Assembly: GCA_051294905.1 (NCBI GenBank)
Contig: CM119373.1
Coordinates: 5,396,001-5,460,000 of the forward strand
Direction of reading: 5' to 3'
Length of the DNA: 64,000 nucleotides
Source: Botryllus schlosseri
Lineage: Eukaryota
This document shows, piece after piece, positions 6,611 through 64,000 of this stretch. The position numbers and the translations under genes were made by a program. Within the stretch, counting starts at the first letter, position 1; every line of letters begins with the position of its first letter. Below the pieces are notes generated by a model. The model was not told where the DNA came from. It worked only from the letters and a program-made list of their open reading frames with translations, and made no database searches.

Positions 6611-6688
6611 ATGGTGAGGCAACATCCAACGTTCATACGCTTACGACCACAAGCAAAGACAACGTAACTTCGAAGCCAAATGACATTA
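6611..6688 (+). CDS. Thr-rich mini-exon (78 nt, phase 1-1)
   Basis: ttgtcag|ATGGTGAG...GACATTA|gtgagt; (D)GEATSNVHTLTTTSKDNVTSKPNDI; assignment to gene 1 is inferred. Confidence 0.6.
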
Positions 6689-6747
6689 GTGAGTTTCCGA
6701 TCGACAAACATACACAATTGAATCGAGTGTGCCAAATTTTCTAACAG

Positions 6748-6816
6748 CAATCAGAAGCAAACCCCGTACGACCGCATCCAAATATGAGGTCACAAAGTCA
6801 ACGCCCTACGATAGCG
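6748..6816 (+). CDS. Thr-rich mini-exon (69 nt, phase 1-1)
   Basis: ttctaacag|CAATCAGA...GATAGCG|gtaagt; IRSKPRTTASKYEVTKSTPYDS; follows a 59-nt intron. Confidence 0.65.
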
Positions 6817-6894
6817 GTAAGTATCAATTTAATCTAAGATTATTAAATGATAAAATTTACAATCAAATTGTTTCAATTGACACACATATAAAAG

Positions 6895-6972
6895 AAGGAG
6901 GGGCTCCAAACGTCACCAAGCCATCGTCGACCACAAGAACGGACGAACTTACAACTTCTAAGAATGATAGCT
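6895..6972 (+). CDS. Thr-rich mini-exon (78 nt, phase 1-1)
   Basis: ataaaag|AAGGAGGG...GATAGCT|gtgagt; (E)GGAPNVTKPSSTTRTDELTTSKNDS; weak acceptor; paralog at 1098-1175. Confidence 0.55.
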
Positions 6973-7637
6973 GTGAGTTCATGTCACCTGAGAATTTGCA
7001 ATGATAGAAATTAATGGCTATCACCAAATTACAATCCAAGAGGACGGCATTACAAGTTTATGGGTAAATATTCCGAATGCACTCACCCGTTACTAACAAG
7101 TTGGCAAATCGTCACTGTAGGACATTTCCCTCCAATCCGGTAGTAATGATTGACATCATACGTATAGCGTGTACTGAAGATTGATTAATGACTGATACTC
7201 CGATAGTATTTAATACATTCAGGGGAAACGAAAAGCATTTTCGAAAACCAGTCCTATCGAGCACGACGTTTAAATTAGCTGGAATACCAGTACCTGACAT
7301 CCCAATTTTTGTTAACTCATTCTCCAACGTACTGAGAAATGTAACATATAATTGTTCCAGTATTTTTGTTGGCAGGGAGAAAAAATAAAGCTCAATAACC
7401 CCGTCAGTTGCTACATCCATTCTATGTGACGTGATCATGTCTGGGAATGCTAGATTCTTAACTTTCTCCATAGAGTTCTATTGAATTCATTAATAGGGAA
7501 AATTAATTTATAAATAGACCAATGTGAGGACTTGTGACATGTTGGAAGCTTTTATAAAAGTACTATTTAACACGAATCCTAATCTTGCAAGGGATATGTT
7601 TGAAATAATATTGACAACTTTATTCTGTTGTCTAGAC

Positions 7638-10613
7638 CAGTGGTTATCAACCTTTTGTCTTCGCTGACCCCTTCTAGATCAGGGGTGGGCAAACTTTTGT
7701 GCTCGCGGGCCGTATTCAACATCTGAATGCATTCGCGGGCCGCACTATATAAAATTGGGATTATAAACCAAAACGCAATATTGCTATTTGATTATATAGT
7801 GAGGACATGGAGACAATATATGTGCTTATTTAAAACAAGCCAAATATTGCTTTGATGATATCGTACACGCGTCAGAATCAAATAGTGGCGAGATTTCATA
7901 GGCTGGCGGACCTCAACAACCAATTTGTCAAAACTATAGAGATAAAAGTCGGTTGGCCCGATTCTTAGAACAGGATTGAAATATAAATCTGTGAGCAGAG
8001 ATCTCTTCATAGATTTAGTAATTCCACTTTGGCTTCAGTTCCAAGGACACACAATGCTGACAGCATCATAACCATGTTATCTTCAAACACGCTTCTACTA
8101 TGTAATTCATACTAAATACATAGCAATAAGTATGAATGGAATGAAAATCGCGCGATGAGCGGGAAATATTTTTTCAGTTGAGCTCAGCTTCGCGCCCTTC
8201 AGATACTTTCACGCCCCCAAGGGGGGCGCGCCAGCCAGTTTGAAAACCACTGTCTTAGAATTATCATGGTGAAATATACTAAGACAAAGTTAATCAAGTC
8301 CCTGCATCAATTCGATTTTTAGTACGCATTTTATCAAAATTTTTGAAATGTTTCTTTAAACTCTCGCGGGCCGCACAGAACGGCGTGGCGGGCCGCATGC
8401 GGCCCGCGGGCCGAAGTTTGCCCACCCTTGTTCTAGACCAGACCTGGGCAAAGTGCGGCCCGCGGGCCAAATGCGGCCCGCGAAGCTATTCTGTGCGGCC
8501 CGCGAAAGGTTGCTTGGAATTCAGAACAAAACTTGCTTTTTGAATGACTAAAACCATAGGCTATATCAAATGAACAGGAAATTCGTTTAGTTTGTAGCCT
8601 GTTCATTAATACGCCACGATTACGCTGCCTACGTGCCTCACATGCGTAATCCAGATTCAAAATAAAGGCAATGTGGCAAAGTATGAGTAGCAATTGAAGT
8701 CACAAGAAATTCCTCTTTCCATATAGTTTAGTTCAAACCTTTCTTGTTGCCATTGTCGCATTACGCATCAAACGGTCTGTGTTTCAATTTATTACGTGAT
8801 ACGTTTCCAAATCCCTAATTCGTAAAGCAAGTCAATCAATGCTCGCGATTACTATATGACTCATCATATCTATCACCCATAAAGGATTAACGGGCAATCC
8901 AAAAAAAGAAAGCCGAAAACTGAAATTCAAAGAAGGATTAGGTTTAGAATATAGAGCACTAAATATTCGTATACAGGAGTCGGGTGTAAACCCGTCCTTT
9001 CAGTTTTTGCTGGGCATGTCGCCGAGATTAAGGATTTCAATTAAAGTCGATCTTATGACAAAAACACGAAACACTCGGTCAAGGGAGGGCGAAATTCAGA
9101 AAAACTGCATGCGTCGCTCAACATAAACGCTATTTTTGGTGCAGACTGCTCGGAAGGCAGCGACCAGGAAAATAAGCTTTGTACTATATAGCATATACAT
9201 TTCATTGCAGTGGTTCTTGAACGTGAAAGCATCAGAAGTGTGGCGCGCAGCCGAAGTTTATTGAAAAAAATTTTCGCGCTATGCGCGATATATCCCCAGC
9301 TTATAGTTATTGCTCTGTGTATTGTCCGACTTTGATATTTCAGAATTATCTCATCAACAGCCATAATCTTCCATGCCATCGAACTATCCGTTGGGATTGC
9401 TAGCATTCTGGTTGCACTTTTTAATACTTTGTGATATCATGATAAGGAGGCGCGAAATTGTTCACTATCATAAAAAAAGGCATGCCTAAAAAGTTTGAGA
9501 ACCACTGTTTTAGAGTTTTAGAAGAACGTGGATAGGGGTTTAAAGAGAGCTAAAATGTAACATGTTTAACATTGTTTCGAATCATGACGGCAAATAGATA
9601 TTTTTTTAATTAACAGTCACTTTCTCATTACCTAATATCTACACATTCACTGAGCATCATTTATTAACAATGTAATTTAGAAATAAAATTAAAATACGCT
9701 AGAGAATATAGCTAATTTTTTTTTCACTAGGCCCGCCAACGTATTTCTTACTTCTCATTTGGCCCGCGGAGGAAAATAATTGCCCACCCCTGTTCTAGAC
9801 CGTTACAGACGCTCGCGGACCCTCAAAAATGTTAGTTCAAATTTAGCTCAATTACCGTAATCTGTCCGGTGCAAATATTCACTGTGGGCTAGTGATAAAC
9901 AGCAGAGTTTGTTGAAAACACCATCATACTATTTATGTAAAAAATGGCTAGACTTTTATTATATCCAAGCGAATTTTATAGTTGCGTTTATTGAAATACG
10001 TGATCGTGTCTAGAAAGTCCGCGCCCTAGATGTGATATGAACGAGTGCCGAAGATCCATTTCCGCGAAGATGGCGGTGGTGGTGAATGTGATATTTACGC
10101 ATAACGATACCGACGCCACATTTTTCGGTATGATCGCAACATATATCACACCAAAATTAGAAAACATATTCTTATTGAACATATACCGTCAATCCTAGTC
10201 ATTTATATCTAGCAGCTCATCTGGAATTTATTCTGGTTTTGTCGTTAGGTATATCGCGGAAAAAATGAATTTTTGCAGACATTTCGAATTCAGCCTATTC
10301 ACCTTACCACTCCAACTTTTGGTAATCTTCCCCGAAATAAAAAAAAATGTTTAAACAGCAATATGATTGTATAAGTAGGCTATTAGTAATTCAGCAATGA
10401 AAATGAGTTTGCACAGTTGGATATTTCATCTCAGACAGTCATTCTATTGATGTGAGTCGTGAAGTTTTAGCATGTTCGGAAGCGAAACTGCCTCGTGATT
10501 TCCCTGTAGTTTTAAGAAATATATTAGGTTATCAACCATTTTGCAAATTTAGAGGTTTCGCCCCCCCCCCCTCCTTCTGAAAATGCTTCGTGGACCACGG
10601 TTGAGCACCACTG
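7638..10613. mobile_element. Nested cluster of Charlie/Buster-type hAT MITEs (inner 7680-8430 and 8439-9792)
   Basis: CAGTGG/CAGGGG termini with GCGGCCCGCGGGCC subterminal motifs; flanks gtctagac, ttctagat, ttctagac, ttctagac. Confidence 0.75.
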
Positions 10614-11093
10614 TTCAAGAAACTCACACTTCCAGTTTTTTTTGTATACGCATAAAATATTTTTCCTTAGGGGTATTAACGATCGTGAAAAATGTTCAGG
10701 ATGATACTGACTTTTGTCAAGCTAAATAACAACGAAGACTAACATTCTGCCACATCAATAAAGTTGGTTTGAGAGCGTCTGAACATAATCGTCGTGCAAA
10801 ATTCTGTAGGTGCCACAGCCACAAAATGAATTAGGTTTGTGAACGCTTACTTATAAACGAAATTTCCCATGAGTTTTGTAACTGCAGCGGTTCATTTTAG
10901 TAGCATTTTGCTCTACTATGAAGTAGTTAGAATAAAGGTCGGAGCATTTTTACAAAATTCGACTAAAGATCTCACCCATTAGGTGTTTCTCGGTGTTACA
11001 CAATTTCTCTTGCGCCGACTCCACCACTACATAGCCCAGATATATCCAAAACCTTTAATCAACGGTTATATATATTTAAGATTAATATTTCAG

Positions 11094-11180
11094 ATTCATC
11101 AACAAAATCATATAGTGATTCCACCACAACTGACTCGATTGACATTACCACATCGACCACTCCAGAGGAGTCGGTTGCAG
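11094..11180 (+). CDS. Thr/Ser-rich stalk mini-exon (87 nt, phase 1-1), gene 1
   Basis: tttcag|ATTCATCA...GTTGCAG|gtaaat; encodes (D)SSTKSYSDSTTTDSIDITTSTTPEESVA. Confidence 0.75.
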
Positions 11181-11327
11181 GTAAATAATATATATATACT
11201 ACGCTGCATCGTAAAATTGAGGATTGCGGTCAAAGCACAATTGGTAATTTCGCGCCTGTTTAATGCACTTAACTTGCGAAATTAGTGATCGGCAAGTTAT
11301 CATTGAAACAACCATATTGCAATTCAG

Positions 11328-11399
11328 GGATGTCAACGACATCACATCGTTTCTCCGCCACGTCTGATTGGATAGAAGTTACAACCGTCACGACTGCTG
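11328..11399 (+). CDS. Thr/Ser-rich stalk mini-exon (72 nt, phase 1-1), gene 1
   Basis: aattcag|GGATGTCAACG...ACTGCTG|gtgaac; encodes (G)MSTTSHRFSATSDWIEVTTVTTA; donor weaker. Confidence 0.6.
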
Positions 11400-11513
11400 G
11401 TGAACATGATATTCGCAAGTAGCTTATTGCTAAAACTTACTATCCCAATAAGCATCCGTAGAAAAGAAAGGCTTTGATTTTACCAACTATATTGCAATTA
11501 AATTGGTATGCAG

Positions 11514-11600
11514 GCTCACCCACGGAATTCTTTGAGGATACTATCACAACAGACTCGGTACAAGTTACGACATTGACAACTCCAGCGGTACCAGATATTG
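11514..11600 (+). CDS. Thr-rich stalk mini-exon (87 nt, phase 1-1), gene 1
   Basis: atgcag|GCTCACCC...GATATTG|gtgagt; encodes (G)SPTEFFEDTITTDSVQVTTLTTPAVPDI; G+CG joins in frame to the 16282 pentraxin exon. Confidence 0.8.
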
Positions 11601-16281: not shown

Positions 16282-16949
16282 CGTGCAACATTTCGCACTT
16301 CATATTCCCGACTGTGGGGCACAGCGATTGCATTCAGTATGGAGGCAAGGTTATGCGTATGGTGGCGATCACGACATGTGCTTGGGTCCGACCAGTCAGT
16401 GGCGAAGAGCCTGTGACCGGAACGTTGTTCAGTTACTGTGCTTTGAAGGGTATTACACGAGAAACAGACCCGTGTGATACCGTTGACGTAAAAATTAATA
16501 AAAAATCAATTAAAGTGAAATTCGGGAGCAGAAAACACTTCACAGCGATAAATACCCCCATTATAGCCCGATCACATTTGTGCATAGTCAAGACAGCCTC
16601 ATCGACAGCGACTTACGTCAATGGCTCAGCTCTTCATTCCGGTACAGCTCAATATCCTGATCCTATCCTAGGCAATGGCGTTCTGATCTTGGGTCATTCA
16701 CAATACGGTCCTATCGACCCAGCACACCCGGCTAAGCATAAGTTTAAGGACGAAGGCTTCCACGGAGAAATTGAAGGATTTACCCTCTGGAACAGAGCTT
16801 TGAATGGGTCTGAAATATTTAGAATGTATCAATCCGGTGGTTGCTGCTGTCCAACCAATGCTTACGCGACTTTCGAACGCTACAATTCAATCGTCCCCGA
16901 TCACGGAATGACTGATACTTGGAATAACGCATGTAATCAGAATGAATGA
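16282..16949 (+). CDS. Pentraxin-domain terminal exon, gene 1 (divergent calcium site)
   Basis: Acceptor tttcatttcag at 16271-16281, phase 1. Reads CNISHFIFP...ITTCAWVRP...TLFSYC...SHLCIV...YVNG...GNGVLILGHSQYG...FHGEIEGFTLWNRALNGSEI, stop TGA 16947-16949. Motif order matches the pentraxin family. AATAAA at ~17173 and ~17210. Confidence 0.9.
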
Positions 16950-45649: not shown

Positions 45650-45971
45650 ATGCCTCAGGCGACGATCATTAATATAGTCGGTTACTCACTTCTAACAGCA
45701 GTAATTGTTCGAACAGACGCAGAGAGTTTGCAATTACTGGAAAGAGCATTTACAGGGGCTGGTGGAAATATCGTTTCCGTTCAAACTCGCATAGCGAAAA
45801 AAGAGGAAGAGTTATCAACCCCCGTTCCCTTTACCCGAATTACCAAAACACAGCCAATTACGACCGAGACAACATCACCTGCAACAACAGTAGCAAGAGA
45901 ATCAAGAATAACAACAACGACAGCAAGAGGAAGTGAGCCTGTGATAACTTCAAAAGCACAACAGCACAAAG
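45650..45971 (+). CDS. Gene 2 first coding exon: signal-peptide-like N-terminus plus Thr-rich mucin-like stalk
   Basis: ATG 45650; MPQATIINIVGYSLLTAVIVRTDA hydrophobic leader, then TKTQPITTETTSPATTVARESRITTTTA; donor AAAG|gtaggc is phase 1 and joins (G+CT) to 49906; spliced ORF 954 nt = 317 aa. Confidence 0.8.
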
Positions 45972-47326: not shown

Positions 47327-49247
47327 CAGGGGTGACCAACCTTTTCGACCGAAGGGTCATATACAAGCGACGCACCATAGCGCGAACCACTATCCGCGCG
47401 AAGCGCGAAAATTCTTAAGAGTATTTAGTTCAACAATAGGGCAACAATATTGTTACTTGAGTATATTGCGGGCCTGCTGTATATCGCTGGACTCGGTGCT
47501 ACAGGGACTAGACCAGGGGTTCTCAAAGGGTGGGCCATGGCCCACTGGTGGGCCACAGGAGCATTTGAGGTGGGCCACAGAGTTATTTGGGAAATTTTAG
47601 AAATAATGTAAGTGTAGTAATATTTGTTGTGTTAATCGCTAAAAAACCTATTCATATTAGTTGATTATACGTAGGCTACATAAAGCTTTTCATCCGACTC
47701 TGACGAGACGTATAGTGGTACGTATGGAGTCAGCATTTAAAGTCGAAAATGGGAGGCAGAAACGGCGGCTTTTTCCACTGGCTATGACTACCTATGGCTA
47801 ACAGCAACTAAAATAATTTCGCGTATTTAATACCTGGAAGGTAATGCTGAAGTAACCAAGTGTTCCGGCAGGGTCATACTGTCGTATGCCGTTGAAAGGG
47901 GTGTGCAATAAAATCGGAATGAATTGTAATTGATGCATAGATTTACTGTACTTCGGCAGGTCGTATTATTGTAAGTTAAAAATGGCCACAATTGCAAATT
48001 ATTAGCAACTTCTGGTGGAGGTATACTGCACCACCGCAACGAATAGTAATGGATTGAGGATTCAGCGGAGCGCAATAATACTTGGAGTCTGTTTTAAATG
48101 TCATGCCTGAAAATCAATGTACGTAATGTAAGAATCACATGGATTGAATATTCCGACATCGCAACTTCAGTTGGTTCAGTACGTGACATTGTACATTGTA
48201 CAGCATGCATAATAAGAAAATCTTCCTCCACTCCTCTGTAGTACCCCATTCACCAATGCAATGTTTGAAGCTGGCCCCGAGTGATTATACTATTCCCCTC
48301 AATTGTGGAGCTAAAATCCCAATCACACAGTGTATGCGGGAATTCGATCATTGTGTTTCGCGAAGCGCATGGAGAAGCGGACGATCATAAAATACTTTAG
48401 CATATGATCTACCAGAGCCGTAACTGCCGCACCCAAACCCCCAATTGGGGGAGCTAGAAGGGGCCCAGCAAAATTATTTCGTTGGTCGTTTGTTAGAAGA
48501 TATTAATTCAACTTGAAAATTTCCGTCGCGCTTCGCGCGACTTCATGCCACGCGATGTTTATATTTTAATGTCACAAGTATATTAGGCGAAAAATTCTCA
48601 TATTTTAGAGAAATAAGAATATCGGGGCCGTCGGTTACCACGCATTGAAAAGGATTATTACTTTGAGATTAGAGGTGGGCCACAGCACATTTTCAAACCG
48701 GAAAATGGGCCACGGCCGAGAAAGGGCTGAGAACCCCTGGACTAGACTATTCGGCGTCTGGACGTATCGACATCGAAAGCTTAGGCCAACATGCGTCAAT
48801 CATTTTGTGCCTAGATTTCATTGTTGACGGTCTTTCTGCGAGCGCAATCGCAAGGTCGCATGTTGGACGACGCTTTCTCTCGTAATTGCGAATATAGATA
48901 TACTCAATGTGGTACATTAGGCGTTCTTCCATTTTCAGGAGGGTGTAGCAATATTAGAAGCAAGAAATCCAGTGACAACATATTGCGGGAAGCGTGACCA
49001 AAAAAATTACTTCAGGGATATCTGCTGGAGAATATTATGCTTTATTGTAATGAACGAATATCTAACAAAAATCTGACTGTTATTCCAGTCGTCACATCCA
49101 AAGTGTTGCGGCCAGACTAATCAAATTTTTTGTTGGGCTTGCAACTTCAAAATCTGGGCAATCCATTTTTGATAATAATACTAATTTCGAAAATAACCTC
49201 GTGGGCCACTCAAAACCCTCTTGCGGGCCACGGGTTGACCGGCCCTG
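47327..49247. mobile_element. hAT MITE containing a second MITE (47514-48739) in the gene 2 intron
   Basis: Outer CAGGGGTGACCAACC...GGTTGACCGGCCCTG with TSD tcttatgg/ccttatgc; inner CAGGGGTTCTCA...TGAGAACCCCTG with exact TSD GACTAGAC. Confidence 0.8.
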
Positions 49248-49905
49248 CCTTATGCTGACCGAAAAGTTCGATATATATACATATATGCTTAATTCCCCTA
49301 AATGGCTGGCGAAAAAAGTTCCTGTACCGTCAATCTGGACCCCACAAGACAAATGCCATCCTGCAGAAAAGAATTATTTGCCAGTGACGAAATACTAATT
49401 TAAAACCATGTGCTTCTTTTAGTATAGTACGTTTTGACATAGCATACAGGATGTCACGAAATAACATCATGTAACGAAGTCAACCAACTGGTCAACCCAA
49501 AGATGTTTAATCATTATTTACGGGCCCTATAATTAATATCCAAGACACCTCACTCATCTGTACCGGTAAATCTGATTACGTGAGCAGACATAGGGAAAAT
49601 TGATAGCATGAGGCAATTCCCGATCATAATAACCGATTAAATCATAAATTATGTAAAATATTCGCGCTTGGCGCTTTTAGCCCGAATAATCCGACTCGTT
49701 AAACAGTACTACAATTCTCGCTGACAAGTAGCGCATAAAACATATAGCGTGATGGGGGTCCAGAGGGTCCGTGACCAACATTATTATTTTTTTGAGGGGA
49801 GGGGGGTACTGACGAAGTGCTGTTTCGGTCCTGCGTACACTTATATGTAATGACGCAATTCGAGTCACGGCATACCATACGTCATTTATAAAATCTCAAT
49901 TTCAG

Positions 49906-50537
49906 CTTGCAACGTTTCTTTCTTCACATTTACCGCACACACGCACAATGATTACGTGTTGTACGATGGCAGTTTACCTGAGATGTCATCACTCACCGTA
50001 TGCGTCTGGATAAAGCCTGCCAGCGGAACAGCCTCCGTGAAAGGGTCGCTTATAAGTTACTGCGCTAAAGCCGCTAGGTATTGCAACACCTTCTGGGTGC
50101 TTCTGCTCTCAAATAGACAATTCATGTACGTGTTTGTTAACTCGGTAGTCCATAATTTCTCGAGCGTCCCCTATATTGAGACACGTTCACATTTATGCGT
50201 GGTGGTGCAGCCAAACGACGTGGGTTTCTACATCAACGGCGATGAGCCAACGAATAAGATCGACCGTGCAGACTCAAAAAATATTCCAGCTGGCGGCGTA
50301 CTGATCTTGGGACAGGATCAAGACGGTGAGATAAAGGGTCGGTCACCAGGCAAACCGGAAAATCCGGCACAGGGTCTCCGTGGTGAAATAGAAGGGCTGC
50401 GTCTGTGGAAAAGAGGTTTGAGCACTGAAGAGATTGCGGAGGTGTACAATGAGGAATGTCACTGCTCGACATTTGACGAATCAAATTCGATCTTGCATGG
50501 ACACGTGACTGCACACTACGACATTTGCAATGGTTGA
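49906..50537 (+). CDS. Pentraxin-domain terminal exon, gene 2
   Basis: Acceptor caatttcag; CNVSFFTF...LTVCVWIKP...SLISYC...SHLCVV...FYING...AGGVLILGQDQDG...LRGEIEGLRLWKRGLSTEEI; stop TGA 50535-50537. Confidence 0.92.
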
Positions 50538-53231
50538 AAAGACTACTCATCTGTTTATATGTAAAAAAAATGGACATTCACCGAATAGTGAGTCCACGCT
50601 CTTGGCCATCGTTTGCTAAGACACGTGATCAAGACTGAGGAATTCGCAGTTATTTCATTTCGGATGATAATTGTATATATAGTATTTTACATTCCAAATC
50701 ACCATAATCGTGGGTGCGTATCAACAATGAACAACAAAAGAGTCCAAACAACTGTTAGGAGGATTGCTCATAGATATATTACACTGTTTTTTTTTTCGCC
50801 AGGACTTCCTTGTGCTCCATCACACCACGTATTCAGATAATATATATGTCGATTATTACTACTTTTCGGGGTAATCAACAAGATGTTGCCTAGATTTTTG
50901 TCATGTTTCAAGGTCTCTTTCACTTCTACCTGAGCAGTACTTTGGAATACTTATTGACTTTTGCAATTAAGATTTCAAAAAGTCGGGAGTAGTCTAGGGA
51001 TAAGATTGCACCATTCTCCTCATTTAAACTGTCATTAGAATTGCGTGAAATAGACCCTGAATTACGGTAACTGAATGTGTGTCTTCGAAGATTCTATCAA
51101 AGTAGGGTAGTGTGTAATTATAGTCGTTTTGCGTTATCCCAGACCCCGTAACCAAATATACTTAGATAAACACTGACGTCTCATACGTCTCAAATTGAAT
51201 GACAAAGCTTCAGAAGTGACGAGTGCCTGATTTACCTTTGATTGTTATCGACGTAATTTAATGAAAAAATCACTTCAACAATCAAACTATATCGACTTAG
51301 TTCGTTACTGACCCCGTCTTGTTTGTAGGCCCTCAAGGCACGAATAGGCTCTTTCCTGAACCGCGAAATACGGATTTAAACTAGTTGACTGATAAGATAT
51401 GTATATTTGACGAAATGAGTGTAATGAAATATATGTTCGGCGTACGTACAAATTGTCATGCTTGCACACGCGAAGCTTTCAACTGAACCCCATCTGAAGT
51501 TGTTTTTTTAACACGACGAGGAATGTCAAAAGAAAACCCCTGGATCTCCGGTGGAAGGCTGACATTGTCTCTCGTTGTCTTTTGCGAGTCTTCTCAGACA
51601 TATATCCAACCAATCACATACCTATTTTGCATATCTTGTTTGTTTGTGGGATTTATGATGCTTGTCGACAAATATGTGGTCATTTATACGAGACAAATTT
51701 TCTTCATTTTGATTCCGTAGCTGTCGGCTTGTAGCCCGGCCCAAATCTATGCTTTGATAGAACACCGCTTACACGGATGAGATGGCAAGGAGGAGCATAG
51801 ATAAACCTTCAACACGTAGGTAGTAATTCTGGAGTCGACATCAGTTAGACCGGAACCCGCAACCCAATAATGTTGCAGCTGTGGATTATAACACTGCGCT
51901 AAGCCAATATTTGCATCAATAAGATGTATGTGAATAGTCCTATAGCCTACATGTTAATTGTCGAGAGTAGGATATTTAAACTGCCGTACCTTTTGTGCAA
52001 AACATGCTATCGATCTGAGGTCTAAAACACGCGGCACGCGAGAACATTTTGTGCCGTCCGCGACGTCTGTTTTAATTTTCAAGCATTCAACAATATATTC
52101 AACTGCAACATATCTTTCTTAGGTGTGAAAACACAAAGTTTACCCTAGAACTATTCCAAAAACGTGAAATGTCATCAAACGTCACTATCACAACACTGTC
52201 AAAAGCTATCATGCGGTGGAAGATCAGCTATTATTTCACATTTCTAGTTCATAATGATAAAACATGGCCCGTTGATGATTCGTGACTGAAAATTGTGATT
52301 TGGACTTGGGCACGACCGTCCGTAAAATTATTCGAATTCGAACTCAATGGGTTATAAAATAAAAATGTTCAATCACAGGACTTGTTACTCGGAACGCCAT
52401 GACCCGGTACGGTCACGGACGCAACAGACCATCAAACTGTGTTAGGGAATAGTAATGTATCAACAGTTAGTAGCTTTCGTTGTGTGTAGCGTATCTAATC
52501 AGGACAGCATGGAAGCCACTGGCATTCTGTTGCCCCATGATAGATATAGTTAGTGACATCCTGTGTGATATTTGATCTCTTTATCCATATTATTATCGTC
52601 GGTGGCACGTAAGAGTGGTGCGATTCACAGCTGTAACACCAATGAATTAGGCTGTAATCGGACATTTCTATTCCAGGGATTCTTAACCACGGGTACGTAA
52701 ACCCCTTCGAGGTACAAAGCATTAGTGGGTACGAGATACATTGTGGAAATAGTCCTGTATGCTATCTAGAGCTTGAAATTATTTTGCAAACCGACAAAAG
52801 GCGTATTATTTTCTTGGCTAATTTATTCACCCGAAAAAAATTCTTGGCGCGATGCGCAATTTTATTTGAATAGGCTTTTTCATTTTGATATAGTTGCAAT
52901 CAGTTGTGTCGAAAATGGACAGGGGTACGATCGTTAGAAATGTTAAGAAACACTGATATCGCTATCACTCAATAATAATCATTATATATAAGTAAGTTGT
53001 TTTTGATCAGTTCCAATTGCTGATTTAATTTGACCTTGGCAATGAAATGAACATTAGCCTACTTATCGGGACTATACCAGAAATCCGGATTGGGCTTCAC
53101 TGCTCAAATGCTCTGATATTAGATCAATACTTGGTGAATTCCAAAATATTCTACTGGGGTCTACGATACGCATCGTAGGCCCCGATTCCACCTATAATTG
53201 TGGAACGTCAAATGACCGCTTGCTGTAATAA

Positions 53232-55721
53232 CACTGGTCAACACAGTTTTTGTTGACTTTGATCAGGCAATTGATTTTGACTAACTTTTAGGCGCTGAAT
53301 TCAAAAATAGCTTCCGTTTTTTCTCTATCACGTCAAGTTTGTGGGTTAGGCACCCCCAACATTGCCTCAAAACCCACATAATAGCACTACTTTTAATACT
53401 TTGTGTTTATTGCATAAAGCATTTCAAAAACTACAACCAGTCGAAAGTAAATCATTAGACTTCAAATAAACATTTGCACTGCTTTATTTGGTTGATTTAA
53501 ACTGATATTGCTTGCACAGGACAAATAAAGTGCGAGTTTCAGGGTCCAAATTCACGCTAATAACCCATAATTCTAGTTTGATACTCGAGCAATAGTCAAC
53601 TAACATATATAAGCTCCGATCTACTCTGGAATCTTATCCCCATCATCTTCAGATGTTGGGGACGTTTTCTCCTTGGCCATCTCTGACTATGTCAAGGTTT
53701 TCAGGGAAATTATTAAGATATTTTAGTTTTTGTTAATATCTGCTGTCCGACATAAACATATGGCAGTGGCACATGTGTATCAGGGTTGCATGTGCTCTGC
53801 ATTCTTATAGTCCGAAAAACAAAGAAAACACAATATTTCAAAGCTGACACATATGATCCAATAGTGCTCATGATATTGCAACAATTCTATGTTTCTGTAT
53901 TGTTCTCAAGGTGTCTGTATTTGTTCAAGAAGACTTACATAGTGTGCAATTGTTACTGCACCCAAGACGTAGCCATTTTAGAGAATGTCACACTTCAGGA
54001 TCCTTTTTTAGCTACCTATAGGCATTTGTCATTCACTTGAGTTCTATATGTCGATTCCTAACTCCTCCAGTAATCCATGGTAACAGTATAATGCCAATAC
54101 CAGTATCAAGGCAATACCAAAATGCTACCGAAAGTAGGCCGGCGAATAAAAGGTTGATTCTCTTGATCGAAAGTGAGATACCTTCTCTACTTTGCCAAGT
54201 AATCTTTTCCCACTTCGTAAGGATGTTAAAAGTTCCGAAAATTTCTATTCCAAGTCCCAAAGCCTATGCCAGATCAATAACTTGTGTTGATTGACTACTC
54301 TACATTCTGAATCATCTTCAATTTCAAAATCTACATCATTAGGCCTGCCATTCCTAAGATCTTCATCTTGATCCAAATTATCGAGCATATAGCAGTTTAA
54401 AGTTACACTGAATAAGCTGAATGGGGCATTGGAACTATATCTGATAGTAAATGGAATGTTTATATTTCTTGCCATATCCTGCAGTTTGCATCATATATGT
54501 GTGTGAAATATCCTCGGATGGTTGCTTCCTCTAATCAAAAATGGGAGAAAGCATCGGCCTAGATCAGGGGCGGGCAACTTCTTCAGTCGACGGGCCGGAT
54601 ATAGGAAAATTAAGTATTTGGTGGGCCGGATTGCTGAATCGATACATTATTCGCACATTTACCCAGTTATTCAAAGAAAAAAAATCGTATTTAATGAATG
54701 TATTTAACCGAGAGCAATGTCACGTCAAAGTCATTTCTCGCCGATATTAACGAAGACAATGTGGATTTGAGGACAGCATCGTCATGAATATGAAGCCGCC
54801 ATCTCTGATCAATCAACACACGGTGCAATCCTTAATTAGGATTTCAAGGCGTCTGATAAGCCCGGTACCTCAAATTTACCAAGATATCAATTCATTCGGG
54901 TTGAGTAGGTGACGAGATAGCGTCGTTGTTCAACTATGTGGCTTATTTTATCTCGATATTGAATTCATGCGGCCCGCGGCCTCTACGAAATTTGAGAAGT
55001 GGCCTGCGACCCGTTTTTGAGTTGGCGACCCCTGACATAAGCGGTATCCTACAAAAGCTTAGAAGTGTGCCGTGCTACAAGTCGGCGGTTGCGGAATCAA
55101 AAATATGAAATATCGGCCTGGTGCAAATAACCATTGTAATCGACAAACACCATGATTACCACAAACGACATTACAGTTGAGTATATCCCGTAAATGCCGA
55201 TAATGCAGGTTTTCCCGCTTGTCGAACTTGAGCGTAAGCTCCACTCTCGCAAGCTGCGCATGCGCATACACATATATAATAACGTACAGTCACTAAAATT
55301 TGACGCAGTAAGCAACTAGTGGGGAATCTCGACAGACTGGGGCCGCAAGCCACAGTATTATGTAAGACGGAAAACTGTCCGCGGGCCAGACAAAATCCCT
55401 TCGCGGGCCGGATTCGGCCCTCGGGCCGTATGTTGCCCGCCCCTGGCCTAGATCGATACCGCTACATTTATTCTTAATAATGCAATTGAACCCATGGCTA
55501 GATAAATTATTATATGGTAAAAGTGTGGATTTTTATATGGTATGGAAAACCAATATGGCTACATTTTGCAATTTGCATACTTTGGGCATATGTCGTAGAG
55601 CAAAAACCTGACGTGATAGAAGAAAACCACTGGCATTTCTGGAATCAACACGCCAAAATTAGCCGAAATCAAGTGCAAAATCCAAATCAACAAATTTTTT
55701 GTTCAAAATTGTTGCCCAGTG
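53232..55721 (-). mobile_element. Non-autonomous Chapaev3-like DNA transposon, second copy
   Basis: CACTGG...CCCAGTG termini, TAA on both flanks; minus-strand relic GAVTIAHYVSLLEQ...IELLQYHEHYWIICVS. Confidence 0.78.
54565..55445. mobile_element. hAT MITE inside the second Chapaev3 copy
   Basis: CAGGGGCGGGCAAC...GTTGCCCGCCCCTG; exact TSD GCCTAGAT; empty site at ~6278-6285. Confidence 0.88.
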
Positions 55722-56742
55722 TAATATAACGCGACAGCATTTACGATGTCGGGATGCATTCGTCCTCTCGCATGGTGTCTATAACTGATTATTTAATTAC
55801 TATTGTACAATTCAGACCCAGAACAAAAACAATTTTATTCAAATATTTGAAAATATCATTCTTTTCTTCTTAGTACAATAGTAAATTACATTTTCACGAT
55901 GTTTGTGGAATGCCAGTCTGCAAGGTCCCGTCAAGTAACGCCTACTTGGAAAATATACATTGAAGACCCAAATTGATGCTGTGACCCGCGGCGTTATCAC
56001 AAACTGTGGAATTGGCCTGCCAACACATCTGACTTTGAGACCTCTGCTATAGATAGATTAGTACAATATGGGAGTAGGTAGCATCATATTACTCAATACC
56101 AGCATGATTTTAATTTGCTCATATTTGAACAGGTCACGGTGTCACTATAATGTGAGTCTCGTAAATTTGTTATGATTGATGATAATAGTTCAACAAAAGT
56201 TAAATTTCGAACGTTCGCACGCGGAAATGGATTGCATTATGAATGATCTCGCGCATCGCAACCTATACAAGGCATAAAAAGATATTCAATTTATTTCAAC
56301 ACACAAATACAATTTAGATTGCAGCATGAGGAAATACCATTTAAGCCATTGCGTCAGTCAATGTAGTTATGATACAAAGGTAATACCGCTTATATGTGTT
56401 GCTTATATCGAAAAGCGTTCAAATCAAGCCGAAATACGACGCAGGAAGTCGGAGCAATGGCCTTGTATTCAATACTCTATGCGGGATTGACCTGGACCGC
56501 CTTGCTTGTAGATGTATGCTACTCTTCGGGTATGTATTAACCAGCGACCTGAGTGATTATGGACAATGTTTATTAATGATGGTGCGAAACCCCGGAAGGT
56601 TCAGTTTCGTGTGAACGCGAACCTTTTTGAAAGTTTCTGTGTGAGCGCGAATGTGAACCTATGACGTCACGTATTGTCATACCGCTACTTCCAACGCTAC
56701 ATTTCTATGAAGTGATTTAATAATGTACAGTACTACGTACAC

Positions 56743-57249
56743 CGGGGCTGTTCAAAAATAACTGTTTTCCTCGGATTCCAGCCATTCACGGATTAAATTG
56801 TCAGGTTACCCAAATAATGGCTGCACACCAAATTTGGTTCAATTCTAACAAGTATAAGACTCCGCAGATCCAATTAAAAATTTTAATTTATTGGGCAAAA
56901 TCAAGAAGAAAAATTTTCACATTTTTTTGTCAACCGCATGAAATTGTTGAGCTATCTTCAAATACGATGCAAAACAAATTAGACTCAATTCTAACTAGTA
57001 GAAGCGGAGTTATTTGAGTTTTTCGTTGATAATTCTCGGATTATCCTTGGTCGGTGGATAATATGGTTGACAGGAAAATTTGATTTTTTTTAATTTTCCC
57101 AAATAAATTAAGTATTTTAATTGGATTCGCGGAGTCATAAATTTGTTAGAATTGAACCAAATTTGGTGTGCAGCGTTTTTTAGGGTAACCTGACAATTTA
57201 ATCAGTGAATGGCTGGAATCCGGAAATAAGTTATCTTTGAACAGCCCTA
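56743..57249. mobile_element. Palindromic hAT-type MITE nested in another MITE
   Basis: GGGCTGTTCAAA...TTTGAACAGCCC long inverted arms; exact TSD ACGTACAC; related to 34563-35226 and the degenerate ~44183-44555. Confidence 0.85.
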
Positions 57250-57690
57250 ACGTACACGATACTTGGCGACAACTCAGGCCACATTATGTCACAATGCTGA
57301 AATACATGTTGACTTTTTAAACGTGGACAAATTTATCAACTGTTACAATCAAATGATATAATAATCCCATAAAATCCATGTCATCGTCGCTTTGCCAACA
57401 ACTTCGACGAGAACTTGCAAGGGAATATATGCTTGAGATTAAACGGTCTGGGTCACACCATCCCTGATATTTACATAGTTGCCCACTATTGAAATTCCAC
57501 TTTCGCTAGCGAAACGATATGAAAAGCATGATTCACGGAATGCGTGAGCTCTGACATTGTGCTCGATCTTGCTCGGTGCAATCTTGAGTCACGCATGAAT
57601 GTCAAAAATAAATTTTAAAGTTGTATTTCCATCTGACTGGACGTATATCAGTGAGGAATGCATATACTTTCGGACTCGAATCTGACCAAA

Positions 57691-57933
57691 ATGTATCAAT
57701 TTTGTGGCTGGTTCTGTATTGTGAGCAAATAGTTGCAGAGCTTCGTTTCGCTTTCATAATTGGAATATAATTGAATATGAATTTGATCCAGTATCGGTTT
57801 ACAGTCTTGATGCAACCATTTATGAAGTCATCTACTTCCGCAAAGTCTAATTCAAGTCAACCTCCTAATATTTATTCAGATGGCTTTTGCTCCAGAAACT
57901 ACATCAACGGACATTGGACCTCAGCAGGGAATT
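57691..57933 (+). CDS. Tentative first two coding exons of gene 3 (57691-57720, 57880-57933)
   Basis: ATG...TGTATT|gtgagc (MYQFCGWFCI) and tattcag|ATGGCT...GGAATT|gtgagg (MAFAPETTSTDIGPQQGI); both end in phase 0, compatible with 58465; speculative. Confidence 0.3.
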
Positions 57934-58464
57934 GTGAGGTCAGTATCCCCTATGTTTCGTAGTTTTTTCATCAATAATGCATAAAATAGCAATTTCTCAT
58001 GAGCTTCAGACTACCCAATTTCCAGTAATACAATCTCGCATATTGTACTATGATTTTTGCAGTGCATCATTCTAAACCAATAGACTGCTATCATTCGTGA
58101 CTGACGCATTGTAAACGAACATTGCGTATTGTTCACGGATCCCACCGTCCCATGGGCTGTAAATAGAGTCATCAGCACGACATCTGGTACCAAATTTCGC
58201 AGTCACACTATTTTGAGTCTATGTGAAAAAATAAATGCCCGATTTCGAATGGAGATATATCCGATCGGTAAGAAGGCGCAAACGTGGTAACGTATAAAGA
58301 TTCTACTACAACCTGGTATATATCTGAATATCAAATTGTGCATTTGGATGATTTACATTTCACTAACTGAAACTGGAATACGCGATGGCATGGCGTTTTT
58401 TTCGTCATGTATGAAATTTTGTACTCCTAAAGCTGTGCTCATCACTATTAATCGCTTCTTCCAG

Positions 58465-58543
58465 GACGGAACAGCGCTTGAAGATATTATGGCCAATTTA
58501 AAAACGCTATCGGAAGAAGAAATTTCCTCGACCACGCATTCCG
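58465..58543 (+). CDS. Stalk exon (79 nt, phase 0-1), gene 3
   Basis: cttcttccag|GACGGAACA...CATTCCG|gtaatt; DGTALEDIMANLKTLSEEEISSTTHS. Confidence 0.55.
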
Positions 58544-58819
58544 GTAATTTCGCCATTTCTTGAGTTAACATATACCGAGGACACTAGCGAAGTATCTCCA
58601 TCGGTGACATTGTACCACTTTCATCAGAATTTGCCGCATACGTGTGTCAAACGTGGATAAAGCTATATTTCCGATCCCTTTTTTTGGAAACTTGCCAGTT
58701 TGAACGGATTTTCTCTTCCTTTATCTTTTGACATCTCCAAAGGGGTTGATACAGCGGACGAACACCCCAAGTAGCACCTCGTTACTTGGACTTTGAATAA
58801 CAAGAGATTAATTGTTCAG

Positions 58820-58906
58820 AACGATATACGGAACGATGTGGTCAATCGGACACGGTGGATGTGGAAGAAGTTTCGACAACGACCAATGTTGGTGGGATTT
58901 CTTCAG
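58820..58906 (+). CDS. Stalk mini-exon (87 nt, phase 1-1) with GC donor, gene 3
   Basis: ttgttcag|AACGATAT...TCTTCAG|gcaagt; (E)RYTERCGQSDTVDVEEVSTTTNVGGISS; same length and phase as the other 87-nt exons. Confidence 0.65.
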
Positions 58907-59526
58907 GCAAGTCGTGTCTATCGACTAGCACGGGAGTGGGCAGCCTCTGACCGCCTATAAATAATCATCCGACCGTGTATGCATAATTGAATTAGCAAGT
59001 GTTAGCGGCAGCAATTTGAATTTACAGATGTACTCCCAAATTGTTGAGATTTACGATGACGCTAGTTACGGTGACTTGATTTGTCTGTGGAAATATAGCA
59101 ATATCCTTGCGATATGAGTCCCGCCTTACAAATGCGAGACGCAGAGGAAAATGACGCGCCCGTGAAGAAATACCAATTTGGAGTCGTGTACGTCTCATGA
59201 AGGTTTTCGTGGTATACCTTTGACTTGAGCTTTGTTAGTATATCGTTTGACCAAACCAAAAATCTTTACGGGGGTTTAAAAAAACAGCATGAAACAAAGT
59301 GATTATTAACAACTCAAAGATTCATCACCGTTACATATGTGCCCAAAATTGTCGAAGAGAACCCCTGTTGGTGTAGGGCGTACCAACAAATTCTCTGGTC
59401 CGACTCCGTCCGACGACTACTTAGTCATATACTTGAAGCTGACGAGGTAGCGTAGTGGTATGATCTCCAGCTGCAACAATAATGGGTTGAGGGTGTGAGT
59501 GCGACCGAGTTCGAGTCCAGAATTTC

Positions 59527-60659
59527 TAGTGGTGCCACTCCTAGTGTTTTAACACTAGATCTAGTGTTTTTTCGGTCGTCCTAGCGTTCCAGTGTTTTTT
59601 TCGCAAAATTTTGCTAATCTAGTGTTTTTCTGCAACTATGCATATAATCAATATTCTAACGTTAGACTACTAAATTATAAGCTAAATTTATCGCTAATGA
59701 GGCGATTCTGTGTTTGTTTTCAACAATTCCATGTGGTGGTGCAGTAACAAGCAATTATTACGTAACAGGGTCCGCTGTGAATCCGTACTTATAAGCGAAA
59801 GTTAATGAAAAAATGAAGAGCGATTTCGCTCTGATGCTCTGTCGTTTCTTGTTGAACTCAGGCTGCAGATTCGGGCAAGATTTTCATTTGCCGAGACAGA
59901 CGGACAGTTTTATTGAACAAAATTGAAATAAAAATACCATTCGTGCTGCAGCGATACGATCCTTCGGAATTCCCGCGGATCACCCAGCCAGCTGCATTGA
60001 TGGAGTGCTAATTAAGCATTGTTCAATTCGAGTCTCGCGTCATCAATAAATATTGAAAAAATGTAAGCTGGCAGAAGAATAGTAAAATCAATCATTCTTC
60101 TAGCTGCGCAATTTCCCTCTGTGATATTATTTGATGAACTTTAACTTTGGCCAGATCGCAAAATGAGCTGCAGGTTATCAGTCAATGCCCTCCAACAGAA
60201 TTTTTGCAAAAATTGAAATCTGTGCACAATGGATTCGGTGAATCAAAATTCCATTTACTGGAGAAGCTCATGACGAATCTCTTGGCATTGCCACATTCCA
60301 CTGCATTCGTGGAATTGGAGTATGCTGCACATGGAAACCTCCCTATTTTTTTGGTTGAAGATGTGCGGTAGAGAGCAAGATGCCCCACAAAAAATACTTA
60401 TGTTTGATGGATGGTGTACATCGAAAGAAAATTTTTATGATGCCGCACAATTCCAAAGCGACATATTTGATTTTTTTGCGCTGTTGAATTCGTTTCATTA
60501 ATTTTCCTTGAATAATCATGCATATGTATCGAATTCATGGGTGGAACACTTCCTATCTGTGGATTTGTACCTTGGTCATCATGATTACTTGGCAAGGGCA
60601 AATCTTTCCTGCAATTTACTAATCTTGTGTTTTTCCGGGAACTTAAAGTGGCAACACTG
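59527..60659 (+). mobile_element. hAT deletion derivative retaining a C-terminal dimerisation-domain fragment, inserted in a SINE
   Basis: TAGTGGTGCCAC...GTGGCAACACTG termini; ORF 60147-60371 EFLQKLKSVHNGFGESKFHLLEKLMTNLLALPHSTAFVE resembles the hAT C-terminal motif (LxLPHSxAxVER). Confidence 0.7.
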
Positions 60660-60731
60660 TTCCTACCTATATCAGTGTTGACGGTTTATCTAGATTCTAG
60701 ACTCTTCCTCACGATCTGATCCGGTCAGGTC

Positions 60732-61973
60732 TAGCGTTGGGACCCCGGGAAATCCCGATCCCGGGATTCCGGGATTTGAAGTAATCTCGATCCCGGGATT
60801 AATCCCAATGAAATCCCGGGATTTGTAAAAAGCATCTACCAAGGCTTACGTAGCGCCATATATCTTATTTTGGTAATGAAGCAGTGTCACAAACTCCGCT
60901 GATTGTCTAAAACAGTGGTCTCAAACACGCTGCCCTTGAGAACATATCGCTCACATAATAAGTAGAAATGCTTAACAACAGTTTATAGTTACCAGCCAAG
61001 ATAGTGAATAGATACGAATTGATGAAATGCAATACATTACGCATTTACAAATCGATATGATACAATTCGAGCCTGTGCCAATGGTTGAGGACTATATAAA
61101 CTATATTCGAATTCAGTTTCAATAAAACAATAGGTTTGGTTAAGGTAAAAACAGAGAACAGAATTTACTTTACTATACTAGTTTATGACAACGTAAGCTG
61201 TAAGCTTCGATCACTTCGTTTGCGGTCAATTAATTTGTGAGATAATAATGGAGGCTGAGTATAACGCACGATCAATAAATGATTGGTCGCTCTCACGGGT
61301 TACACCATCGTTTGGCGAACATATGCAAGATACAGTGATTTTGATCGACACCGATTACTTGATGATTTGAAATTGACTCGTGAATTTTGCTCCGAGTCAC
61401 GATTCAATCCACATTTCTTATAGGCCGAGTCAAGTCAATTCATACGAAAAAGGTGACTCGAGTCTGACTTGAGTTAAATCATGACTCGAGTCATCCCAAC
61501 ACCGGTGTCAAACTGTCTATAACTCATTATTTTGCCAAATTATGCCAAGCACAAAAATATTTTTTAATAAAATATTTAAAAACATTACTTTATCGTGGCA
61601 AACGTGATTATTACATTCGTGAATCACATTTTCACAATTTTTATTGAATGCCAGTCAGCAAGGTCCGTCAAATAAGGCCTATATTTGGAAATACATATTG
61701 TACCTCTATTTGATGCTGCGGCCCACCGCGTCATCAGAAACTACGGGAAATTGGCCGCGAGCAAGTTTGAGTTAGAAACCCGTGGTCGAGACGATGATAC
61801 GCTTGCTGCTCTTATGTTTTGGGTCAATATTACAAGGAATAAATGTTGTTTGTGTAGCTTGTATGTGTATTTTACTACTTTTCTAATCCCGGGAAATCCC
61901 GGGATTGAGAAGCGAGAATCCCGGGAAATCCCGATCCCGGGATTTCAAATTTGATCCCGAAGTCCCAACCCTA
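60732..61973. mobile_element. hAT MITE with CCCGGGA subterminal repeats
   Basis: TAGCGTTGGGAC...GTCCCAACCCTA; exact TSD GTCAGGTC. Confidence 0.85.
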
Positions 61974-62225
61974 GTCAGGTCATGTTGTGCGGCCGTGACG
62001 TGATTTTAGATTTCGCCAGAACGTTAAGAAAAGAATTTTGAAATGGTGAAATTGATTTCAGTTGCAAAAAATCGCGAAACTTGCGCTAATCACAGCACAG
62101 GTTTTGTGGCCACAAGAGCTTGTCTACTACTACATATTGGACGATATATACATGATTGTGATATGTAATAATGGCGGTGTGTGACAATTTCTGATTGCAG
62201 TTAAGTTGTACTTTCCTGTTTTTAG

Positions 62226-62312
62226 AGAAACCGATAGAAAGCAAAATAGTAGCTACTACAGTTGAACTTGAAGGGGTTTCGACAGTTACCACCGCAGGCG
62301 ACAATACTACAA
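62226..62312 (+). CDS. Thr-rich stalk mini-exon (87 nt, phase 1-1), gene 3
   Basis: cctgtttttag|AGAAACCG...ACTACAA|gtgagt; (E)KPIESKIVATTVELEGVSTVTTAGDNTT; A+CT joins in frame to 63564. Confidence 0.8.
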
Positions 62313-63563
62313 GTGAGTGCTGTCATATACCTATCGCCGTAGCCGGTGCGCAATAACGGAAATTACATATCATCTATCGACCACACCAGGTTGAATACCA
62401 TACTATTGTTTATCATTCCTTTGGACCAGTAATTATTAACCTTTTTAGCGGTGGTATCCCTTGAACTGCCATGAAATTTTTCCCGTGCCCCCTATCCACG
62501 ATTAAAAAGCAGTTTTTGAAGCAGCCCCAAAAACGTTGGTTTTTGGGCTCAGTATAGGGTTTCAACACGACTTCTGTGGATTTTTGGAACAGGAGACGTA
62601 GCAGCGACTGAAGATATTAGTGTCGAAGGTTTCGCCAACGTGCTGTGTTTTAGGTTCCTAAAGTTTATCACTACCGATCTCTTTGGCAATGCGGTCTACG
62701 TGGTCGCAGGTGCACCGAAACGTCATGGGTCTTGGTCTTTCTGGTGCGGAAGTTACGACCAGAGCCGAAATGCCGGAGTGGGACACTCCCGCTCCAGTAG
62801 ATTTCCCACCCCTGGACTAAAGCACCCCAACGGCTTGATGTTTCCAGTCTCTTGTAATTACGATTAATGCTAGACTCGTTTCTTTAACTTAGGTTTTATT
62901 TTTATTAATAGCCTACTCTTATGTTGTTGTAGGGGCTGGCATACCGAAATTTAAAGAAAAAATTCTCTTAAAAGAAAATCGCGCGAAGCGCGATGAAAAT
63001 ATCCGATTTGAAGAAATTCAATGAATAATATTCCACTTTTATTATGATTTGCAAAATAATTGATATCATAAAATAGCGTACGATTTCGCACTGCATCCCG
63101 TACCCATACCTTGGTGCCTCGCACCCCCATGAGGTCCATTGACTCCTGGTTGAGTACATCTGCGTTATGCCGTGTTTCAATGGGACAGGTATATGTAAGT
63201 TTAGTTGCCTCCCACAAGGAAAAGTTTTGAAATTTGAATTGAGTGCAATATTAATCCATTAAAGTACTCACAAAGGACATATTCGCCCTGCGGAATAAAT
63301 TGAAAGAATTGGTAAAGTATTAATTATCCATATTGAACGAGTTGTAGGTTGTCCAATTTCAATAATCGATGTACAACCATATTCTTCATCAACTGGCGTC
63401 GTAGTATGTTGAGTTGATACAGACACTTCCTTCAGCTGGCTTATACGAAATACGTGTTCGTCATTCAAATGTAATGATTAAATAATAATATACCAAACAC
63501 TTACTGAAATGCCGTTTTAAGTTTGAGCAAACATCATCATAAAACAAGGCATCTCCTTTTCAG

Positions 63564-64000
63564 CTTGCAACGAATCAGTCTTCACATTTTCCGAGGAGAA
63601 CCACCTTGATTACGTGTTGTACAATGGTACTTTACCTGAGATGTCATCACTCACAGTATGTGCCTGGGTTAAGCCTGACAAGGACAATGAATTTGTGAAA
63701 GGATCCCTCATCAGTTACTGCGAACCGCTCGGAAGCGATTGCAACACATTTTTTGTGCTGCTGCACTCAAATGGATCACGCCTCTTGCTCGTTTATGTCA
63801 ACTCACAATCCTATCGATTCTCGGGGGCTCCGTTCATAACGTCTCCTTCGCATTTTTGCGTGGTGGTGCACCCATACGAAGTGGGCTACTACATTAACGG
63901 TACTGAGCCAATGGATAGAATCGACCGTGAAAATTATATGAATATACCGACTGGCGGAGTGCTGATCTTAGGACAGGATCAAGACGGCAAAATAATCGGA
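63564..64000 (+). CDS. Pentraxin-domain exon, gene 3 (runs off window end)
   Basis: Acceptor ccttttcag; open frame CNESVFTF...DYVLYNGTLPEMSSLTVCAWVKP...SLISYCEPLGSDCNTF...SHFCVV...YYING...TGGVLILGQDQDGKIIG; close paralog of gene 2; absent from the ORF track because no stop falls in the window. Confidence 0.92.

Follow-up and report, generated by a model that had tools for sequence, protein, structure and literature searches.

The window analysed here, a stretch of 64,000 nucleotides from Botryllus schlosseri (GCA_051294905.1, contig CM119373.1, positions 5,396,001 to 5,460,000 of the forward strand), carries three genes that end in a pentraxin exon and are predicted to begin with Thr/Ser-rich N-terminal regions. 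It has a GC content of 40%, no CpG depletion and many dispersed repeats. The three pentraxin-like open frames are each contained in a single exon, and all lie on the forward strand. The acceptor of all three exons is tttcag in phase 1 (at 16282, 49906 and 63564), and the residues at it are A-C-N in genes 1 and 2 and T-C-N in gene 3. This agrees with the first-pass annotation, a reading of the letters alone, which had described three co-oriented genes joined at such an acceptor to a single pentraxin exon. No fourth pentraxin was found on either strand of the window (hmmsearch --max, six frames, stops read through); the 'CNTF'-like stretch at 41569–41616, considered as a fourth, was ruled out with the score of −2.5. 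Four long open reading frames and one minus-strand frame between genes 1 and 2 have no Pfam match.

Gene models and the pentraxin domain

The features of the three genes are listed below; the splice joins of all three models are predictions from sequence.

Gene 1
1..447, forward strand: further copy of the intron that follows the three-exon stalk cassette of gene 1, cut by the window start (72% match to 7182–7640)
880..1870, forward strand: tandem copy of the gene 1 stalk cassette, partly decayed (76% match to 6679–7645)
6593..6688, forward strand: predicted Thr/Ser-rich exon, phase 1-1 (the alternative acceptor, 6611, is the start in the first-pass annotation)
6748..6816, forward strand: predicted Thr/Ser-rich exon, phase 1-1
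6895..6972, forward strand: predicted Thr/Ser-rich exon, phase 1-1, with a weak AAG acceptor
11094..11180, forward strand: predicted Thr/Ser-rich acidic exon, phase 1-1
11328..11399, forward strand: predicted Thr/Ser-rich exon, phase 1-1
11514..11600, forward strand: predicted Thr/Pro-rich exon, phase 1-1
16282..16949, forward strand: terminal pentraxin exon with stop, 10 Cys, degenerate calcium loop GHSQY (Pfam, splice model)
Gene 2
45650..45971, forward strand: first coding exon with ATG, hydrophobic leader, Thr-rich basic stalk and phase-1 donor (splice model)
49906..50537, forward strand: terminal pentraxin exon with stop, 8 Cys, calcium loop GQDQD (Pfam, PDB sequence search, fold model)
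Gene 3
56457..56529, forward strand: signal-peptide exon of 24 codons with a phase-1 donor, read from hydropathy and missed by the first-pass annotation
57880..57938, forward strand: short phase 1-0 exon that carries a Cys pair, frame kept between its neighbours (splice model)
58465..58543, forward strand: phase 0-1 exon in which a short amphipathic segment looks helix-like (helix read from the residue pattern)
58820..58906, forward strand: acidic/Thr-rich exon, phase 1-1, with a single Cys and a GC donor; optional, and the least certain exon
62226..62312, forward strand: predicted Thr-rich exon, phase 1-1, crossed unspliced by one contig of the set X1
63564..64000, forward strand: pentraxin exon, cut by the window end (Pfam, profile search)

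The Pfam Pentaxin profile matches genes 2 (E = 1.5e-11) and 3 (E = 2e-7) above the cut-off, so the profile comparison suggested in the first-pass annotation was positive for these two, whereas gene 1 scores below the cut-off (0.075) and matches only Laminin_G_3 (E = 5e-8). Gene 1 is tied to the superfamily through its domain, which is 37% identical to that of gene 2; the identity is 34% between genes 1 and 3 and 60% between genes 2 and 3. In the PDB sequence search NPTX1 came first (E = 1.5e-9, and 3.9e-21 by profile), followed by NPTX2, PTX3 and then the short pentraxins. The AlphaFold model of the gene 2 domain has pLDDT of 86, and its top five Foldseek matches are NPTX1, NPTX2, Limulus SAP, SAP and PTX3 (TM 0.67–0.79); prediction of a two-copy complex of this domain gave no answer (score 0.00). 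The pentraxin signature, H-x-C-x-S/T-W-x-S as given in PMC3539679 and PMC7461825, is not present in its canonical form in the window genes. With a pentraxin domain of the expected type, about 200 residues in the concanavalin-A-like fold, the three genes are members of the pentraxin superfamily, divergent rather than canonical.

The pentraxin domains are under purifying selection, with the ratio of nonsynonymous to synonymous rates (dN/dS) between genes 2 and 3 equal to 0.44 (bootstrap 0.28–0.70, 143 codons). The open frames span 144–221 codons, and the Cys residues are intact.

Ligand positions were numbered as in CRP and carried over to the window genes through the NPTX1 alignment. The calcium ligands of CRP are Asp60, Asn61, Glu138, Gln139, Asp140, Glu147 and Gln150, as listed in PMC6503050. 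At these positions gene 2 has Cys, Asn, Asp, Gln, Asp, no clear match (insertion) and Gln, and gene 3 is the same over its visible part; gene 1 has Cys, Asp, Ser, Gln, Tyr, no clear match and Glu. Relative to NPTX1, the calcium loop of the window proteins contains a 6-residue insertion. A further Cys stands a few residues upstream of the one at CRP position 60, and we infer that this extra pair at the first ligand position forms a disulfide. Since most ligand positions are kept, genes 2 and 3 probably bind in a calcium-dependent manner; gene 1, with two acidic ligands lost, probably binds otherwise than through calcium.

A TGA stop lies within the pentraxin exon both in gene 1 (16947–16949) and in gene 2 (50535–50537), and no hydrophobic segment was found in the last 40 residues of either protein (hydropathy KD19 of 0.04 and −0.12), which upholds the earlier statement that both genes stop without a transmembrane segment. 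The stops of genes 1 and 2 stand past the last Cys, as do those in the relatives, while gene 3 ends beyond the window; the layout of SVEP1 and adhesion G-protein-coupled receptors (GPCRs), in which the domain is internal or N-terminal and followed by further domains, is not seen, and these are stand-alone C-terminal pentraxins, as had been claimed.

The excess of Thr/Ser-rich phase-1 exons over chance was assessed by a strict rule (AG..GTRAG, 60–129 nucleotides, Thr+Ser of at least 33%, symmetric phase 1). Six exons on the forward strand satisfied it, all of them upstream of a pentraxin exon, compared to none on the reverse strand and one each in phases 0 and 2 on the forward strand; 200 shuffles yielded zero, one or two exons in 154, 41 and 5 cases, respectively, two being the maximum. 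A looser donor pattern gave ten stalk exons against none on the minus strand, and we preferred the strict count because the looser pattern included motifs picked after the exons had been seen. The Thr/Ser-rich phase-1 exons exceed chance.

The predicted N-termini are 107, 128 and at least 162 residues long, the last being that of gene 1. The Thr+Ser content is 41% in gene 1 and 26–27% in genes 2 and 3, where it peaks at 50% and 40% over 30 residues, and the Thr+Ser+Pro content of genes 1, 2 and 3 is 47%, 32% and 27%. Hence the Thr/Ser-rich character reported earlier for all N-termini stands, while it is strongly mucin-like in gene 1 only.

The stalk of gene 1, as modelled, extends from 6593 to 11600 and is made up of six phase 1-1 exons rich in Thr and Ser, 162 residues in total, and AATAAA-type signals occur 224 and 261 nucleotides past the stop of this gene. 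Since the three-exon cassette is repeated at 880–1870, and its intron again at 1–447, the stalk region has undergone tandem duplication. In the copy at 880–1870 the first exon is mostly replaced by a repeat, the second has its GT donor broken by one base, and the third (1098–1175) retains intact splice sites in the alignment. Its exons are 77–86% and its introns 77–81% identical to the original; with exon divergence about equal to intron divergence, this copy shows no sign of selection.

The two-exon model of gene 2 yields 317 residues with a hydrophobic leader (KD19 of 1.54), exactly as annotated before. No AATAAA or ATTAAA was found within 1.5 kb past its stop.

Gene 3 departs from the earlier picture of a stalk only: the Thr-rich stretch is present, but so are the signal exon (leader KD19 of 1.49), the Cys pair and the helix-like segment. 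The rule that identifies the signal exon finds two such exons on the forward strand, of which this is one, and two on the reverse strand as the control, and is weak taken alone. Signal-like exons at 26480 and 61794 were treated as chance, because the former adjoins repeats and the latter lies inside an intron of gene 3.

Relatives and known counterparts

The homologue scan covered 1.84 billion representatives and gave 247 matches at E of 0.001, of which 150 were listed. The closest among the matches listed are twelve unnamed single-exon predictions, and all eleven that were looked up are Logan-only; the domain of gene 3 is 83% identical to one of the unnamed proteins, P0001. Several of these relatives have apparently intron-derived starts ahead of the same x-C acceptor position. 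The clade relatives terminate at a common position, immediately past the last Cys.

The tree was constructed from 49 selected domain rows: single-domain top matches, the named members of their clusters, and outgroups from vertebrates, corals and hemichordates, with multidomain matches mostly omitted. The three window genes and the twelve unnamed relatives form a clade of 15 of the 49 rows with the support of 100/100 and the stem of 1.12. It is nested in a group of 40 rows (95/90), in which the named members are all tunicate (Styela, Halocynthia, Ciona, Clavelina); taken by itself, this placement points to a tunicate, most likely an ascidian, as the bearer of the genes. Within the clade, P0017 and P0024 fall together with gene 1 and have the same degenerate loop, and genes 2 and 3 group with P0001; judging by sequence, the clade has two subtypes, one with most calcium ligands kept and one with most of them lost. 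The S-Y-C...C pair was found in 12 of the 14 clade rows scored, the two misses being fragments that start past it, and in none of 62 other single-domain rows.

No named clade member occurs among the matches listed, and the diverged clade with its rebuilt ligand face appears to be unnamed. It may be missing from annotation, because the searches made show it only as unnamed, unspliced single-exon predictions. The first-pass annotation had called the genes a lineage-specific, expanding family. The genes do fall in a diverged clade of 15 members, which is apparently, and likely, expanded.

Long pentraxins are defined in PMC3539679 by a unique region at the N-terminus together with a C-terminal pentraxin domain, and the architecture of the gene models would place the window genes among them. 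The same source describes PTX3 as a leader, an N-terminal domain and a pentraxin domain on three exons, the pentraxin domain occupying one. The likeness to PTX3, and also PTX4, extends to the predicted leader, the predicted N-terminal region of its own kind, the single-exon C-terminal domain (PMC3539679, PMC7461825) and the fold. However, the N-terminal domain of PTX3 is described as helical and disulfide-linked into an octamer (PMC3539679), whereas in the window gene models this region is rich in Thr and Ser and, for genes 1 and 3, divided among many small exons. Orthology to PTX3 is not supported by any test made.

NPTX1 and NPTX2 are the best PDB matches both by sequence and by fold, and share with genes 2 and 3 an Asn and the GQxQD loop. 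On the other hand, NPTX1 has four introns (PMC7461825), belongs to a separate clade in the tree and lacks the 6-residue loop insertion. CRP and SAP share the fold, and nearly the whole domain on one exon (PMC7461825), but they have no N-terminal extension, a full signature and all seven calcium ligands, while the window models have the extension and keep the ligands in part. The window genes are not CRP or SAP. Multi-gene pentraxin families are reported from invertebrates such as Limulus (PMC6503050).

In the tunicates, collagen-pentraxins (Halocynthia roretzi 'C-reactive protein c', BAF49232.1; Ciona XP_002121231; Clavelina XP_076806633.1) and the Ciona robusta Ptx-like protein are secreted, have an N-terminal extension and lie with the window genes in one broad group of the tree. 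The collagen-pentraxins contain 7–16 Gly-X-Y repeats, compared to none in the three window models.

The closest layout was observed in Styela clava. Three RefSeq models, XP_039249362.1, XP_039248577.1 and XP_039271740.1, consist of a signal, a Cys/helix segment, a Thr/Ser-rich linker (30-residue Thr/Ser peaks of 60%, 50% and 37%) and a terminal pentraxin domain, which is also the layout of the gene 3 model. The automatically annotated 'SAP-like', 'CRP-like', 'jeltraxin-like' and 'neuronal pentraxin-1-like' models of this species, which also include XP_039249013.1 and XP_077968089.1, are about 270–340 residues long and share this order of parts, with a Cys-containing segment, a short helix-like segment and a Thr/Ser-rich linker ahead of a C-terminal pentraxin domain ending in Cys, and with the signal-like leader absent from one of them. 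Records of identical length, 25.4 Mb, carry a member of each of four such clusters. Their domains are about 29–34% identical to those of the window, fall outside the window clade and lack the extra Cys pair. The names are automatic, and no functional study of these Styela clava pentraxins was found. Since the stalk-plus-pentraxin design is present in these models, it is not new. An undescribed architecture unlike that of long pentraxins, as proposed initially, is not supported, given these models and the definition of long pentraxins. We found no description of a Thr-rich stalked pentraxin family in tunicates in the literature searched, which covered few subscription papers.

Four of the Styela clava proteins (P0222, P0153, P0159, P0029) have a conserved N-terminal Cys-x-Cys followed by a short helix segment, an unnamed small domain; this Cys/helix segment has no Pfam match and no usable Atlas match. 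Pairwise, the N-terminus of gene 3 seemed to resemble it, with 3 of 500 shuffles scoring as well in the best of 36 comparisons. In addition, several newer RefSeq models for P0152, P0041, P0022 and P0154 are shorter than the older ones or split, which suggests that annotation handles the Styela pentraxin family poorly.

Transcripts and repeats

Data from four runs were compared with positions 44001–64000, that is, genes 2 and 3, and were dominated by repeats; the two raw RNA runs among them were sampled at about 6% and 13%. The bin of the gene 2 first exon has zero depth in all four runs. In the bins on the two pentraxin exons (genes 2 and 3) the contig set X1 has the depth of 2–3, and its contigs may be DNA, because they cross the exon borders unspliced. 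A repeat in the gene 2 intron, at 46460–46910, reaches very high depth in each of the four runs, and loose ends are numerous at 46462 and 46910; it is a high-copy element present within many transcripts.

Among the other repeats, two arrays of a degenerate 9–11 base unit, AAGCTAATG-like, at 26674–27045 and 28911–29442, are inverted relative to each other and about 1.9 kb apart, and farther out there is a direct 88% repeat (25527–25916 and 30494–30903); the arrays are probably transposable-element ends. The 155-codon open frame at 25251–25715 has no Pfam match, and presumably resembles a widespread invertebrate transposase fragment. The near-perfect palindromes at 34562–35227 (667 bases, 91%) and 56745–57247 (503 bases, 75%) are related to each other and resemble miniature inverted-repeat transposable elements.

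Possible function and rival explanations

We consider it reasonably probable, by analogy with the family, that the products of the three genes, long-type pentraxins from a tandem cluster, are secreted and O-glycosylated and act in mucus, tunic or haemolymph as lectins for pattern recognition. In its favour, the Ciona robusta Ptx-like gene is described as induced by lipopolysaccharide in haemocytes (PMC9960688). Judging by hydropathy, genes 2 and 3 have signal-like leaders, through which their products would be secreted; the product of gene 1, the start of which was not found, may be secreted as well. The O-glycosylated stalk would hold the disulfide-stabilised pentraxin head off a scaffold of mucus, tunic or haemolymph, and the head, as a soluble lectin serving pattern recognition, would bind glycans of microbial or self origin, or phosphorylated ligands. 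The family would diversify its heads by gene duplication, and its stalk length by gain, loss and duplication of small phase-1 exons.

Several observations weigh against this interpretation. The signature is reduced to H-x-C, with His in 13 of 14 rows, Cys in all 14 and Trp in none. The start and 5' end of gene 1 were not found within the window. The bins that lie on the pentraxin exon in gene 2 (50004–50670) and in gene 3 (63344–64000) have zero depth in the two raw RNA runs, and none of the predicted junctions of these genes is among the 15 joints listed of 137 in the four runs, so that the spliced transcripts named in the first-pass annotation as a check did not appear there. The long stem of the clade makes its exact place among tunicate pentraxins provisional. 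Homology between the N-termini of gene 3 and the Styela proteins is unproven, as the three-sequence hidden Markov model was matched or exceeded by 512 of 1000 shuffles; hence the shared layout may be ancestral or convergent. Finally, the immune function would follow from family analogy.

The same gene structures could instead encode structural or adhesive matrix proteins of the tunic, mucus net or egg coat rather than immune sensors. A mucin-like stalk would suit a gel or matrix role, the degenerate calcium loop of gene 1 fits it, the absence from two bulk RNA runs agrees with expression in a narrow tissue or at a narrow stage, and a SAP-like botryllid lectin is reported as tied to barrier fibres (PMC2275902). 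Yet the paralogue divergence, the dN/dS value and the remodelled ligand loops would be more typical of recognition proteins, and we regard the matrix role as unlikely.

Less likely still is that one or more of the products, mainly that of gene 1, are type II membrane proteins with an uncleaved N-terminal anchor, a glycosylated stalk and the pentraxin head displayed at the cell surface, like the neuronal pentraxin receptor. Gene 1 has the longest stalk, with extra cassette copies upstream and the first exon not found in the window, and the leader of gene 2 could serve as a signal anchor. However, in genes 2 and 3 the leader is short, has moderate hydrophobicity, begins at residue 2–3 and, by eye, ends with small residues at −3/−1, and the full-length Styela relatives have ordinary signal-like leaders.

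The next possibility, which we hold improbable, is that of silent or decaying genes, or of pentraxin exons spliced to 5' exons different from those modelled. The missing junctions and near-zero exon depth in the four runs, the X1 contig crossing the gene 3 exon unspliced, the damaged upstream cassette copy with exons conserved no better than introns, and the lack of a polyadenylation-type motif past gene 2 all point in this direction. Long open frames, conserved Cys residues, dN/dS below 1, intact splice sites and the non-random chain of phase-1 exons weigh against it.

That the pentraxin exons are internal to a larger SVEP1-like or adhesion-GPCR gene is very improbable and largely refuted: pentraxin domains do occur in such proteins (weak profile matches to ADGRG4 and ADGRG6, multidomain matches in the scans), but the stops of genes 1 and 2 and of the clade relatives stand just past the last Cys, the only donor-like sites near the exon ends would remove the conserved terminal Cys, and a search of longer proteins gave, as weak evidence, no close clade member and 11 distant matches among 8000 candidates scored.

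For the secreted stalked lectins as we propose them, a wider role may be outlined tentatively, as a possibility that is far from likely in its entirety: an undescribed set of at least a dozen stalked pentraxins restricted to this lineage, in which a new disulfide at the first calcium-ligand position and a longer calcium loop have rebuilt the ligand face, some subtypes use calcium and others do not, and the stalks vary by exon cassette. Such a set would provide diversified soluble recognition in mucus or tunic, possibly as part of a barrier to microbes or to foreign colonies. Among the invertebrates, tunicates are most closely related to the vertebrates. The original partners of C1q have been proposed to be tunicate pentraxins (PMC5465252). 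The finding extends a known family and does not amount to a system of a new kind; with its altered ligand sites, a clade expanded in this way would offer concrete genes for testing how pentraxin recognition diversifies without antibodies.

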